Assembly (NCBI GenBank): GCA_021647835.1 | Contig: JAKITY010000001.1 | Span: 8,718 to 72,717 of the forward strand | Direction of reading: 5' to 3' | Length of the DNA stretch: 64,000 nt | Source: Flavobacteriaceae bacterium | GTDB lineage: Bacteria > Bacteroidota > Bacteroidia > Flavobacteriales > Flavobacteriaceae | Shown: positions 8,339-58,596 of the stretch, piece by piece | How positions within the stretch are numbered: position 1 is the stretch's first letter | Layout of the letters: each line of letters starts with the position of its first letter | Program-made: the position numbers and the translations under genes | The notes under the pieces: generated by a model | Database searches by the model: none | Told to the model about the DNA's origin: nothing | Seen by the model: only the letters and a program-made list of their open reading frames with translations

Positions 8339-8848
8339 ATGGATATTTTCTTGCTCTTTTTAGGCTTCTTTTTCGTTTTACTCGGAATTATAGGCTCCTT
8401 TTTACCCGTTCTTCCAGGACCAATTACTGGCTGGATCGGACTACTTATATTACACTTAACTAAAGTCATACCAATGGATTGGACGTTTCTAGGAATAACA
8501 TTAGCCATTGCAGTTATCATTTGGGGACTTGACTATGTCATTCCTGCTTGGGGAACCAAGAAATTTGGCGGAAGCAAATACGGAATTTGGGGAACAGTCT
8601 TTGGATTAATCCTCGGAATTATATTTTTAGGACCTCTTGGAATTATTATTGGTCCTTTTGCTGGGGCTTTTATTGGAGAAATGATTCATGATAGCACTGA
8701 TAGTAAGAAAGCTGTCAAAGCAGCATTTGGCTCTTTTATAGGTTTTATGCTTTCTACAGGATTGAAATTTTTGATAAGTATTATTTTTGTTGGGTTGTAC
8801 TTGTCTAAATTTTGGGATTATAAAGATGTTTTCTTTTCGACAAACTAG
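8339..8848 (+). CDS. DUF456 family membrane protein
   Basis: LPVLPGP, TKKFGGSKYG and GPFAGAFIGE motifs; highly hydrophobic. Confidence 0.88.
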   Translation: MDIFLLFLGFFFVLLGIIGSFLPVLPGPITGWIGLLILHLTKVIPMDWTFLGITLAIAVIIWGLDYVIPAWGTKKFGGSKYGIWGTVFGLILGIIFLGPLGIIIGPFAGAFIGEMIHDSTDSKKAVKAAFGSFIGFMLSTGLKFLISIIFVGLYLSKFWDYKDVFFSTN

Positions 8849-8852
8849 ATTT

Positions 8853-9011
8853 AGTCATTTCGAACGAGTAACGAGGAGAAACCGATAGGTTTTCAGCGAA
8901 ACATTAAAAAAACAATAAGAAAAGAAAGAGTTAAATCGCATCATATTGCTCAATTACACAAATCAAAACGTGATTCTCAGTATGCGATTTCTCCTGCTGG
9001 TCGAAATGACT
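8853..9011. repeat. REP/MITE-like element (GTCA-end family) with ~110-bp spacer
   Basis: Perfect 11-bp terminal inverted repeat AGTCATTTCGA / TCGAAATGACT plus inner GGAGAAA / TTTCTCC. Confidence 0.7.
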
Positions 9012-9035
9012 GAGCCGAACAAAACGTTACAAAAC

Positions 9036-9138
9036 AAAAAAAGCGTCCCGAAGTTCGGGAAGCTTTCCATTGGTTTATAAAAACCTTTCGACACACTAAT
9101 GTGTCGAAACAACACAACTCTGTACTTTTACATACAGA
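9036..9138 (-). ncRNA. Candidate ~100-nt trans-acting sRNA divergent from lysS
   Basis: TATCTTTG promoter at 9142-9149(-), hairpin 1 (9119-9138), single-stranded GUUGUGUUG, 10-bp hairpin 2 (9086-9109) and GC-rich terminator with U7 (9036-9066). No ORF in the track. Confidence 0.7.
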
Positions 9139-9141
9139 CTA

Positions 9142-9149
9142 CAAAGATA
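9142..9149 (-). promoter_or_regulatory. Bacteroidota sigmaA -7 element for the sRNA candidate
   Basis: TATCTTTG matches TAnnTTTG. Confidence 0.7.
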
Positions 9150-9220
9150 CTGATTTTTTCAATCACTATACTTTTTTTAATTTCTTTTTTATAGTCTTTC
9201 AATTATTTCCTAATTGATTG

Positions 9221-9228
9221 TATCTTTG
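9221..9228 (+). promoter_or_regulatory. -7 element of lysS
   Basis: TATCTTTG about 35 nt upstream of the ATG. Confidence 0.7.
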
Positions 9229-9262
9229 CTAATTGTAATCATCAATCTATAAAAATTTTAGA

Positions 9263-10960
9263 ATGCAATTATCAGAATTAGAAATTGTAAGACGCGAAAA
9301 ACTTGTAAAATTACGCGCCTTAGGTATCAATCCGTATCCAGCAGATTTATTTCCTGTAAGTCATACTTCTGAAGAAATTAAACAGCAGTACAAAGAAGGA
9401 GAAAAAGTAATTATTGCAGGAAGACTAATGGCAACTAAAATTCAGGGAAAAGCATCTTTTGCGCAATTACAAGATAGTTTTGGTAGGATACAAATATATT
9501 TTAATCGTGATGAAATTTGTCCTGATGATGATAAAACATTATACAATGAAGTCTTTAAAAAACTATTAGATTTAGGAGATTTTATTGGAATCTCAGGCGA
9601 ATTATTTACTACAAAAGTAGGCGAAATATCCGTAAGAGTAAAGGAGTTTAAGTTGCTAAGTAAAGCCTTAAAACCATTACCATTACCAAAGGAAAAAGAC
9701 GGAGTTGTATATGATGCTTTTACAGATCCAGAAATGCGTTATCGACAGCGTTATGTAGATTTGGTCGTAAATCCACACATAAAAGAAGTCTTTATAAAAA
9801 GGTCTAAACTTTTTGCTGCAATGCGAAGTTTTTTTAACGATGCTGAATATATGGAAGTGGAAACGCCAATTCTACAACCAATTCCTGGTGGCGCAGCAGC
9901 AAGACCATTTATAACGCATCACAATAGTTTGAATGTGCCAATGTATATGCGAATAGCCTGCGAATTGTACCTTAAAAAGGTGTTAATTGGCGGTTTTGAT
10001 GGCGTGTATGAGTTTGCAAAAACCTTTAGAAATGAAGGAATGGACAGAACGCACAATCCAGAATTTACAATGATGGAAATCTATGTTGCATACAAAGATT
10101 ACAATTGGATGATGGATTTTACCGAAAAATTATTAGAACATTGTGCAATTGCTGTAAATGGAACTTCAAAAGTAACTTTTGGCGAACATAAAATAGACTT
10201 TAAAGCGCCATACAAACGTGTTACAATGCGTCAAGCAATTATTGATTTTACCGATTTTGATATTGACGGAAAAACAGAGCAAGAGTTATTTACAGCAGCA
10301 AAAGGAATGGGAATTGCTGTGGATAATACAATGGGAAAAGGAAAATTGATTGATGAAATTTTCGGAGAAAAATGTGAAGCAAATTACATCAACCCTACTT
10401 TTATTATGGATTATCCTAAGGAAATGAGTCCTTTATGTAAAGAACATCGAGATAATCCAGAGTTAACAGAACGTTTTGAATTGATTGTTTGCGGTAAAGA
10501 GTTGGCAAACGCTTATTCTGAATTAAATGATCCAATTGATCAACGAGAGCGTTTTGAACACCAACTACAATTAGCCAAAAAAGGAGATGATGAAGCAACG
10601 GAGTTTATTGATGAAGATTTTTTAAGAGCCTTAGAATATGGAATGCCTCCAACTTCTGGCTTAGGAATTGGAATGGATAGATTGATTATGTTTTTAACTA
10701 ACAATGCATCTATTCAAGAAGTGCTTTTCTTTCCACAAATGAAACCTGAGAGGCGAATTTCTTCAGATGTTATTTTAAATGAGGAAGAAAAAAAGGTTCT
10801 TGCAATTGTTCAAAAGGCAGAAAAAATTGATTTAAGCGAATTAAAATCTCAAAGTGGATTGAGCAATAAAAAATGGGATAAAACCATTAAAGGATTAACC
10901 AAAAACAACCTTGCAAAAGTTGAAAAAACAGATGAGGGTTTGTTTGTAGAGATTATATAA
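9263..10960 (+). CDS. lysS: Lysine--tRNA ligase (class II) with C-terminal extension
   Basis: RYRQRYVDL, GGAAARPF, FRNEG..HNPEF and YGMPPTSGLGIGMDR motifs, plus ~65 extra residues after FPQMKP. Confidence 0.98.
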   Translation: MQLSELEIVRREKLVKLRALGINPYPADLFPVSHTSEEIKQQYKEGEKVIIAGRLMATKIQGKASFAQLQDSFGRIQIYFNRDEICPDDDKTLYNEVFKKLLDLGDFIGISGELFTTKVGEISVRVKEFKLLSKALKPLPLPKEKDGVVYDAFTDPEMRYRQRYVDLVVNPHIKEVFIKRSKLFAAMRSFFNDAEYMEVETPILQPIPGGAAARPFITHHNSLNVPMYMRIACELYLKKVLIGGFDGVYEFAKTFRNEGMDRTHNPEFTMMEIYVAYKDYNWMMDFTEKLLEHCAIAVNGTSKVTFGEHKIDFKAPYKRVTMRQAIIDFTDFDIDGKTEQELFTAAKGMGIAVDNTMGKGKLIDEIFGEKCEANYINPTFIMDYPKEMSPLCKEHRDNPELTERFELIVCGKELANAYSELNDPIDQRERFEHQLQLAKKGDDEATEFIDEDFLRALEYGMPPTSGLGIGMDRLIMFLTNNASIQEVLFFPQMKPERRISSDVILNEEEKKVLAIVQKAEKIDLSELKSQSGLSNKKWDKTIKGLTKNNLAKVEKTDEGLFVEII

Positions 10961-57032: not shown

Positions 57033-57058
57033 TAATTTTGTGCGAAACCACACAACTC
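57033..57058 (+). promoter_or_regulatory. purH -7 promoter and C/A-rich leader (candidate sRNA target)
   Basis: TAATTTTG at 57033-57040 and CGAAACCACACAACTC at 57043-57058. Confidence 0.6.
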
Positions 57059-57063
57059 ACAAA

Positions 57064-58596
57064 ATGAACGCTACAAAAACAGCAAAATCAGCACTTATTT
57101 CAGTATTTCACAAAGATGGATTGGCACCAATCGTTAAAAAGTTAAACGAACTTGGAATCACAATTTATTCTACAGGAGGAACAGAAAAATTCATCACAAA
57201 ATTAGGAATTAACGTAGTTCCTGTTGAAGATTTAACATCATATCCATCTATTTTAGGCGGAAGAGTTAAAACACTACATCCAAAAGTTTTTGGAGGAATT
57301 TTAACAAGACGTGATAATGAAAATGACGTTGCACAAATAAATGAATTTGAAATTCCAGAGATTGATATTGTTATTGTTGACTTATATCCTTTTGAAAAAA
57401 CGGTTGAAAGTGGCGCACCTGAGCAAGATATTATTGAGAAAATTGATATCGGAGGAATTTCTCTAATTCGTGCAGCAGCAAAAAACTTTAAAGATGTTAT
57501 TTGTGTATCATCTGTTAATGATTATGAAGAGTTTTTACAGTTGATTACTGATGGAAATGGCAGTACAACTTTAACCGATAGAAAACGATTTGCCGCAAAA
57601 ACATTTAATGTTTCTTCCCATTATGACAGTGCTATTTTCAACTACTTCAATAGCAATCACGAAATCGCTACATTAAAAATAAGCGAACAAAAAGGACAAG
57701 TATTGCGTTATGGTGAAAATCCGCATCAAAAAGGGTTTTTCTTTGGCGATTTAGATAAAATGTTTGATAAACTGCACGGCAAAGAACTTTCCTATAATAA
57801 TTTATTAGATGTTGATGCTGCGGTAAATTTAATGTTAGAGTTTAAAAATGACGCGCCAACATTTGCAATTTTAAAACATAATAACGCTTGTGGATTGGCA
57901 CAACGAGAAACAATCTATCAAGCCTATATCGATGCGCTTGCAGGAGATCCAACATCAGCATTTGGAGGAATTTTAATTTCTAATGTTGAAATCGACACAA
58001 AAACTGCTACTGAAATTCATCAATTATTTTGCGAAGTTGTTATTGCCCCTTCTTTTTCTGATAAAGCATTAACTATATTAAAAGGAAAAAAACACAGAAG
58101 AATCCTCTTACAAAAAGACATTGACTTGCCTAAAACTACTGTTCGAACTTGCCTAAATGGAGTATTGGTACAAGGTAAAGATTTAAAAACCGATGTTTTA
58201 GAAGATTTAACTTATGTAACCAACAATAAACCATCCGAAAAGGAGTTAGAAGACTTATTGTTCGCCTCCAAACTGTGTAAACACACGAAGTCAAACACTA
58301 TTGTTCTTGTAAAAAACAAACAACTTTGTGCCAGCGGAACTGGTCAAACAAGTCGTATTGATGCGTTAAATCAATCTATTATTAAAGCAAATCATTTTAA
58401 TTTTGATCTAAATGGTGCTGTTATGGCAAGTGATGCATTCTTTCCATTTCCAGATTGTGTGGAAATTGCTGATAATGCGGGAATTAAAAGTGTTATTCAG
58501 CCAGGAGGTTCAATAAAAGACCAGTTATCTATTGATTATTGCAATGAAAATAAAATAGCAATGGTAATGACTGGAACAAGGCATTTTAAACATTAA
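57064..58596 (+). CDS. purH: Bifunctional AICAR transformylase / IMP cyclohydrolase
   Basis: ALISV, GRVKTLHP, LRYGENPHQ, SDAFFPF and RHFKH; start ATG 57064. Confidence 0.98.
   Translation: MNATKTAKSALISVFHKDGLAPIVKKLNELGITIYSTGGTEKFITKLGINVVPVEDLTSYPSILGGRVKTLHPKVFGGILTRRDNENDVAQINEFEIPEIDIVIVDLYPFEKTVESGAPEQDIIEKIDIGGISLIRAAAKNFKDVICVSSVNDYEEFLQLITDGNGSTTLTDRKRFAAKTFNVSSHYDSAIFNYFNSNHEIATLKISEQKGQVLRYGENPHQKGFFFGDLDKMFDKLHGKELSYNNLLDVDAAVNLMLEFKNDAPTFAILKHNNACGLAQRETIYQAYIDALAGDPTSAFGGILISNVEIDTKTATEIHQLFCEVVIAPSFSDKALTILKGKKHRRILLQKDIDLPKTTVRTCLNGVLVQGKDLKTDVLEDLTYVTNNKPSEKELEDLLFASKLCKHTKSNTIVLVKNKQLCASGTGQTSRIDALNQSIIKANHFNFDLNGAVMASDAFFPFPDCVEIADNAGIKSVIQPGGSIKDQLSIDYCNENKIAMVMTGTRHFKH

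Follow-up and report, generated by a model that had tools for sequence, protein, structure and literature searches.

A probable new family of small RNAs with an invariant G/U-rich seed in Flavobacteriaceae, and purH as its best-supported candidate target

The window analyzed here, a stretch of 64,000 nucleotides of flavobacterial DNA, contains between lysS and a gene for a DUF456 protein a short segment that an earlier note, made from the letters alone, had described as a complete non-coding unit on the minus strand. Does this segment encode an RNA of its own and, if so, which messages could such an RNA control? Our results indicate that the minus strand from 9149 to 9036 is very probably the gene of a regulatory RNA of about 100 bases, belonging to a family without prior description. 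The elements that had been claimed for the unit, namely a -7 box, the hairpin UCUGUA/UACAGA, an unpaired GUUGUGUUG, a perfect 10-bp hairpin and a U7 terminator, are all present, and they are collected in Table 1 together with the features of the purH locus.

Table 1. Features of the sRNA gene and of the purH locus (positions in the window)
Feature	Position	Strand	Basis and remarks
-7 box TATCTTTG	9142-9149	-	Direct reading; Bacteroidota sigma-A consensus TAnnTTTG
5' hairpin UCUGUA/UACAGA	9119-9138	-	MFE fold; RNA 5' end predicted a few nt upstream
Single-stranded seed AGUUGUGUUGUUU	9107-9119	-	Invariant core GUUGUGUUG at 9110-9118
Hairpin 2, perfect 10-bp stem UUUCGACACA/UGUGUCGAAA	9086-9109	-	Terminator and fold predictions
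Hairpin 3, GGUUUUUAUAAACC	9072-9085	-	Fold; not mentioned in the earlier note
Second conserved block ACCAAUGGAAAGC	9062-9074	-	Spans the 3' arm of hairpin 3, the linker and the outer stem of the terminator
Intrinsic terminator	9036-9068	-	Stem UCCCGA/UCGGGA (9060-9046), extended by GGAAAGC/GCUUUUU; tail U7 at 9042-9036
purH -7 box TAATTTTG	57033-57040	+	Direct reading; TAnnTTTG box at the equivalent place in genus relatives
purH leader site CGAAACCACACAACUC	57043-57058	+	Antisense to the sRNA seed; covers -21 to -6 relative to the purH ATG
purH coding sequence (AICAR transformylase / IMP cyclohydrolase)	57064-58596	+	ORF list; candidate target

The predicted fold of the 104-nt RNA reaches -38 kcal/mol, with a z-score of -6.8 against 200 dinucleotide shuffles, and leaves the seed core GUUGUGUUG unpaired with a probability of at least 0.96. 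On the minus strand, the linker AAUGG separates hairpin 3 from the terminator. The latter is strand-specific: in a terminator scan the stem comes up on the minus strand alone, and the plus-strand hairpin is not followed by a T run. As regards the neighbors, lysS is divergent and the DUF456 gene is convergent, so that the RNA precedes no open reading frame. The locus displays the features generally expected of an sRNA gene, with its own promoter box TATCTTTG and an intrinsic terminator in the absence of a conserved open reading frame; additionally, hairpin 2 varies by compensatory changes, which is incompatible with coding.

Some further observations concern the immediate surroundings of the gene. 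lysS has its own TATCTTTG box in the divergent orientation (window 9220-9262), about 70 bp from the sRNA promoter, and upstream of the sRNA only canonical promoter elements were seen, with no obvious operator. On the opposite side, the spacer of about 160 bp that separates the sRNA terminator from the DUF456 gene end is flanked by an inverted repeat, AGTCATTTCGA at 8853-8863 and TCGAAATGACT at 9001-9011, whose 11 nt lie below the minimum length of 12 used in the repeat search. Neither a second copy of the sRNA nor a tandem-repeat sibling was found in the window's own genome, which is 69% complete; a second BLAST match there, on contig C63, turned out to be merely a similar terminator behind a protein gene.

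Comparison among relatives separates what is fixed in this RNA from what is free to change. In the genus alignment derived from BLAST matches, the hairpins vary, but no change is seen in the seed block or in ACCAAUGGAAAGC. The stem sequence of the 5' hairpin differs from genus to genus, and five of its six pairs keep pairing through changes on both sides in the genus alignment. A wider alignment of 93 distinct family members (A5), to be read with the caveat that it was fitted to the model, forms standard pairs in 96.5% of its cells, with both-side changes at 14 of the 21 pairs, and its covariation score of 0.36 exceeds those obtained with shuffled (0.11) and slid (0.03-0.07) partners. Within it, all of the pairs of hairpin 2 (8/8) are compensatory, with 95% of cells paired, the GG/CC and UU/AA pairs of hairpin 3 are kept in 86-92 of the 93 sequences, and the inner stem of the terminator co-varies as well. 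The second block reads CCAAUGRRARRC family-wide. Particularly, the seed, on whose conservation the proposal of the earlier note depended, is invariant across the family: among covariance-model matches, which were not selected on the seed, GUUGUGUUG is present in every real one except that of genome G022, which reads AGUGUGUUG.

By BLAST, the 141-nt unit is found in 17 of 19 genomes of the window's genus and, more weakly, in three other genera. A two-block pattern reaches further, with at least 120 records matched in a species-representative collection; about 115 of those listed are Flavobacteriaceae, and the listed carriers include Tenacibaculum, Polaribacter, Lutibacter, Flavobacterium (F. 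psychrophilum among them), Tamlana, Flaviramulus and Algibacter. In a sample drawn across the order, the pattern is present in 40/42 Flavobacteriaceae genomes, with only scattered, chance-like strings in 17 other families and a reversed-pattern control near zero. Under strict filters, a covariance model of the core (model R1) scores in 36 of 61 genera; most of the genera negative at this setting turn positive with lax filters or with the pattern, and model R1 combined with a looser pattern covers nearly every genus sampled. A comparison within the family between genomes with and without the sRNA was dropped, the strict-filter negatives having proved positive. In 31 genomes of a sister family (f7), the same model finds terminator look-alikes only.

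Pattern matches in metagenome-assembled genomes labelled Chitinophagales, Oscillospiraceae and Planctomycetaceae are chance matches that lack a terminator. A typical copy of the Polaribacter/Tenacibaculum type, located beside lysS, was also seen on contig JAOZLT010000211.1 (L066), labelled as a Candidatus Gracilibacteria metagenome-assembled genome, which is probably a mis-binned flavobacterial contig.

The earlier note had recognized no named family, and Rfam 15 likewise holds none that matches, with nothing at gathering score across the whole window; the best sub-threshold matches, RefA9, Phe_leader and BTnc201, are look-alikes in terminator or architecture. Full-text literature searches with the seed, its complement and Flavobacteriaceae sRNAs as subjects returned no description of this RNA, and no matching sequence was found in the F. 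psychrophilum supplements and an OMV-sRNA paper. As judged from these sequence searches, the family appears near-universal in Flavobacteriaceae and is very probably undescribed in Rfam 15 or in the literature searched. Given that no model of a known family matches it, it would constitute a new family within a known kind, that of the base-pairing sRNAs.

The RNA had been described as GcvB-like, a likeness that stands as a functional analogy only. GcvB of Enterobacteria (RF00022) uses a G/U-rich single-stranded seed (the R1 region of GcvB) to block C/A-rich translational enhancers upstream of start codons, and the window RNA likewise has an unpaired G/U-rich seed, GUUGUGUUG, with a complement in the C/A-rich leader of purH. 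In sequence, structure and context, however, the two do not match. The GcvB model gives no match in 8500-9600 even at E up to 10, and none at gathering score in the whole window; the window RNA is about half as long, lies beside lysS and the DUF456 gene instead of gcvA, and belongs to an Hfq-independent phylum, while the GcvB regulon is one of amino-acid transport and not of purine synthesis.

Among the families compared, the most similar layout is that of MasB (BTnc201, RF04177) of Bacteroides thetaiotaomicron, from the same phylum and equally without Hfq: both RNAs measure about 100 nt and run from a 5' hairpin through an extended single-stranded, G/U-rich stretch to an intrinsic terminator. 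MasB represses its target by pairing to the 5' region of the mRNA (PMC10994844). Nevertheless, MasB has a narrow distribution within Bacteroides and acts on the message of a TPR protein; the window family, for its part, is specific to Flavobacteriaceae and differs in its seed and by extra hairpins. With the MasB model the window RNA reaches 19.1 bits (E = 1.7) against a gathering score of 105, and is therefore not a MasB member. GibS and the multicopy FopS of Bacteroides have in common with it an exposed conserved seed followed by a terminator, and pair at start regions (PMC7366714, PMC11697453). In addition, the window family has up to three copies in some genera, as FopS is multicopy, and a likely association with an RNA-binding protein would be a further likeness. 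On the other hand, FopS targets susC-type transporter mRNAs while the recurrent match here is purH, and seed and structure differ. The FopS model has been deposited in Rfam (PMC11697453), and the Rfam search at E up to 10 brought up neither a FopS nor a GibS family. GcvB, MasB and FopS/GibS are analogues of the window RNA, not relatives.

Closer in taxonomy are the Rfp RNAs of Flavobacterium psychrophilum, a species of the same bacterial family, which include Rfp18, a conserved, structured sRNA with a proven regulatory phenotype (PMC9723704). In the published list of Rfp1-89 (Table S8, PMC9723704), the seed and core strings are absent except in an unrelated antisense RNA. The F. psychrophilum homologue (L058:5771-5868) is located just downstream of a tRNA gene and, as far as that table extends, seems not to have been called there as an independent RNA.

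Regarding the messages that the seed could reach, the plus-strand 16-mer at 9105-9120 recurs in the purH leader with one mismatch (15/16), as the earlier note had reported; when up to two mismatches are allowed, the window contains no sites beyond these two, and shuffles predict 0.05. The identity of purH comes from its N-terminal sequence and from orthologues with 62-92% identity in all 60 genera compared. Its leader measures about 20 nt and is nearly all seed complement, and the predicted duplex with the seed amounts to -12.0 kcal/mol for the 13-nt seed and -16.3 kcal/mol for a 15-nt version. The pairing at 15 of 16 positions over the initiation region that had been proposed is thus present as a match, but its last five positions (CGAAA, which pair with UUUCG of the sRNA) fall inside hairpin 2 and are not conserved in relatives. 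For this reason, the conserved accessible pairing unit is AGUUGUGUUGUU(U) rather than the whole 16-mer: conservation extends over 9-13 nt only, and the full 15/16 pairing is peculiar to the window's genome.

The purH leaders of 60 Flavobacteriaceae genera were compared at thresholds of -10 and -12 kcal/mol. Pairing with the seed at or below -10 was found in 24 of them (40%) and at or below -12 in 13, against 4.2% and 0.7%, respectively, of 565 other start regions from the family loci. The neighboring genes, used as controls, gave 6/57 and 0/57 for lysS and 4/37 and 0/37 for the DUF456 gene at the two thresholds; lysS, the DUF456 gene, obg and adk were rejected as targets, their matches being near background. 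In two sister families without the RNA, purH leaders pass -10 in 0/28 and 2/30 cases (pooled 2/58), with none passing -12 in the latter; these leaders are A-rich yet non-complementary to the seed, and the background in sister family f7 is likewise 4%. Fisher's test of 24/60 against 2/58 gives p of about 1e-6, a value that overstates the evidence, as do p-values here in general, since the genera are phylogenetically related and not independent. Furthermore, for 16 of the 60 purH leaders the real seed is a better fit than 95% of its permutations of the same composition. Conservation of the leader match, on which the earlier proposal also rested, is therefore partial: it holds in 40% of genera, against about 4% of start regions, and a good purH site is absent in 60% of the genera that carry the sRNA. 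With a conserved accessible seed and conserved sites complementary to it, purH stands out as the best-supported recurrent target site, a putative one that these comparisons support well.

Other candidate targets are weaker and less consistent. A scan of the 13-nt seed against start regions (-45 to +18) of the window's own genome, comprising 1653 regions from simple ORF calls on the 69%-complete assembly, finds 85 regions pairing at or below -10 kcal/mol against 41.5 +/- 12.8 in 40 permutations, none of which reaches 85; the enrichment over C/A-rich start regions is modest, about 2-fold. purH, purA and guaA all rank within the top 22 of the 1653, and the top match is the gene for a transketolase C-terminal subunit (tkt-C), with a perfect 12-mer. 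When 507 orthologous start regions were compared with those of a second genome (G010, complete and congeneric, 1.6 Mb used), seven paired at or below -10 in both, against 2.1 for shuffled seeds, although this overlap is close to the shuffled-seed maximum of 6. The seven shared sites belong to prs (PRPP synthetase by Pfam), guaA, purF, mutS, a YraN-family gene, an NqrF-like gene and an exonuclease gene; those of guaA, mutS and the YraN-family gene lie within conserved codons, so that protein constraint can explain them. The top sites of G010 also include pnp, pgi, zwf, ppc, an aspartate aminotransferase gene and ribD.

Across the family, matches were found for prs in 8/30, for purA in 11/60 and for the transketolase gene in 4/29 cases; purA and tkt-C were discarded as family-wide targets, their matches being lineage-specific only. 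No seed match was found in the window's genus for purD, purE, purL or the pyrimidine genes. We therefore treat prs, purA, guaA, purF and tkt-C as weaker candidate co-targets, whose matches hint at a control of PRPP and purine supply and make a wider regulon of that kind suggestive. The notion of a trans-acting regulator of C/A-rich leaders that include purine synthesis is supported by the excess of complementary sites at purH (24/60 against 2/58), and to a modest, roughly 2-fold extent genome-wide; overall, the interpretation of the earlier note appears supported at the level of sequence comparison.

Three side observations on nucleotide genes deserve mention here. CAACACAAC words had been seen at the starts of such genes; the purine part of that observation is supported, and the pyrimidine part was not reproduced in the window's genus. 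Among prs leaders (L432-L461), a TAAATTTG promoter and, behind it, a conserved hairpin in the leader, CACCUCC...GGAGG, are seen in many genera. This hairpin is missing from the genera with a seed-complementary prs site, the window's genome included; hairpin and site may be alternative control elements. The purA leaders (L281-L340) have promoters that share the extended string TA(C/T)TTTTACGG(A/C)AA, followed by an A-rich leader, and this string may be a separate conserved regulatory motif.

The gene architecture around the core differs between members of the family. As in the window, 78/114 members carry a TAnnTT(T/C)G box of their own, 21-33 nt ahead of the seed, together with a co-varying 5' hairpin; the remaining 36/114 have the core downstream of a terminator hairpin and its T-run. 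The promoter of some genera directly adjoins the seed, which would then form the 5' end of the RNA. In five genomes (G067, G068, G070, G091 and G093) and in F. psychrophilum (L058:5771-5960), the core begins a few bases past the 3' end of a tRNA gene and lacks a separate promoter box, an arrangement suggestive of a joint transcript from which tRNA processing sets the sRNA free. The family can also be multicopy, as several genomes hold two or three copies within a few kb (G070:C1:3204392-3212541; also G092, G053, G085, G045 and G047). lysS adjoins the sRNA in 57 of about 114 loci, an arrangement kept in Polaribacter, Tenacibaculum, Lutibacter and the window's genus, and the core is kept while the neighbor genes change between genera. 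These varied expression modes of one core, from an own promoter to tRNA-linked, post-terminator and multicopy forms, amount to a natural experiment in sRNA gene evolution.

A sibling RNA was observed beside the structured form in most Flavobacterium genomes sampled (for example, G021:C1:1421-1461, G055:C33:10399-10439 and G310:C1:2003737-2003793). It carries two or three tandem G/U-rich repeats (GUUGUGUUGUAGUUGUUGUGUG...) and, without a middle hairpin, runs straight into the same module of CCAAUGAAAAAC plus terminator.

What the comparisons establish is the anatomy of the unit, its conservation and covariation, the invariance of its seed and a statistical excess of sites complementary to it. 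Our findings lead us to propose that the locus is the gene of a trans-acting sRNA of about 100 nt whose seed pairs with C/A-rich leaders, with purH as the best-supported recurrent target, and represses translation, a reading that we consider probable though far from certain. We infer that the RNA would be transcribed from its own sigma-A type promoter, ended by the intrinsic terminator, and would display the invariant single-stranded G/U-rich seed AGUUGUGUUGUU between two hairpins. In response to a physiological signal, the seed would most likely base-pair directly in the cell with C/A-rich 5' leaders and start regions of mRNAs; at purH, a duplex of -12 to -16 kcal/mol would cover positions -21 to -6. 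Initiation in Bacteroidota relies on unstructured A-rich leaders instead of Shine-Dalgarno sequences, and on target mRNAs without a Shine-Dalgarno sequence such pairing would block ribosome loading, translation being most likely repressed. Start on leaders of this type, together with the fact that GibS, FopS and MasB of Bacteroides repress by pairing at start regions (PMC7366714, PMC11697453, PMC10994844), makes repression of initiation the most likely mode. The conserved block CCAAUGRRARRC and the tandem-repeat sibling may, in addition, leave room for a protein partner.

A far broader role can be conceived, which we put forward tentatively and regard as rather doubtful. In Flavobacteriaceae, the supply of PRPP and purines would be governed at the post-transcriptional level mainly by this sRNA, acting on purH, prs, purF, purA, guaA and pentose-phosphate enzymes in place of PurR or the purine/ZTP riboswitches that hold this role in other bacteria; where fused to a tRNA, it would tie nucleotide synthesis to growth-rate-controlled tRNA transcription.

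Other explanations of the same data have to be considered. The RNA could be real and its match to purH incidental, with the C/A-rich purH leaders serving as a translational enhancer or as a site at which a regulatory protein binds DNA or RNA, and the true targets lying elsewhere. The lack of a good purH site in 60% of the sRNA-bearing genera is in line with this idea, and so is the position of the top G010 sites in central metabolism (pnp, pgi, aspartate aminotransferase, ppc, zwf) and not in purine genes alone. Shuffled seeds also pair better with purH leaders (mean of about -7.5) than with average leaders, so that purH leaders are C/A-rich as such. However, base composition leaves aside the preference of 16/60 leaders for the real seed order over 95% of permutations, the excess of complementarity is absent from the two sister families without the RNA at an equal background rate, and the site fills the whole short leader by the start codon, where Bacteroides sRNAs act (PMC11697453, PMC10994844). 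On balance, an incidental match seems unlikely to us. More remote still is the view that the segment is a cis element, be it the leader or 3' UTR of a neighbor or a bidirectional terminator region. About one third of the family members follow an upstream terminator or tRNA gene without their own -7 box and may arise there by read-through or processing, but the window copy comes with a consensus -7 box and a strand-specific terminator of its own, the next gene downstream is convergent, so that it precedes no open reading frame, and the core outlasts changes of neighbor genes between genera, all of which renders this view very improbable.

In a further scenario, the RNA would act mainly as a protein sponge or ligand, its G/U-rich motif binding an RNA-binding protein (for example, an RRM protein like RbpB of Bacteroides) instead of serving as an mRNA seed. 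The Flavobacterium sibling, in which tandem G/U-rich repeats (two or three) precede the CCAAUGAAAAAC-terminator module, has a layout typical of titrating RNAs, the second invariant block ACCAAUGGAAAGC has no obvious pairing role, and RbpB binds seed-bearing Bacteroides sRNAs in single-stranded regions (PMC11697453). Against this, the window's RNA carries a single motif, protein binding and base pairing are compatible, as FopS and GibS do both, and the statistics of purH complementarity are left unexplained by a sponge, which we accordingly hold to be improbable as the main function. We thus retain the trans-acting, base-pairing sRNA as the preferred reading of the locus.

In the sea, Flavobacteriaceae are major degraders of organic matter from algae and particles, and some of them are serious pathogens of fish. 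To our knowledge, RNA-based regulation is almost unstudied in this family, which lacks both Hfq and initiation led by Shine-Dalgarno sequences. In this regard, a single sRNA whose seed is preserved to the letter in nearly every genus offers an unusually clean entry point, combining a defined seed with a short purH leader, and its carriers include the genetically tractable hosts F. johnsoniae and F. psychrophilum. The match in the purH leader makes the RNA a testable candidate for RNA-based control of nucleotide synthesis. If the purine link is true, this would be, as far as we know, the first regulator of purine synthesis described in Flavobacteriaceae, and an sRNA would exert control where other bacteria use repressors or riboswitches.
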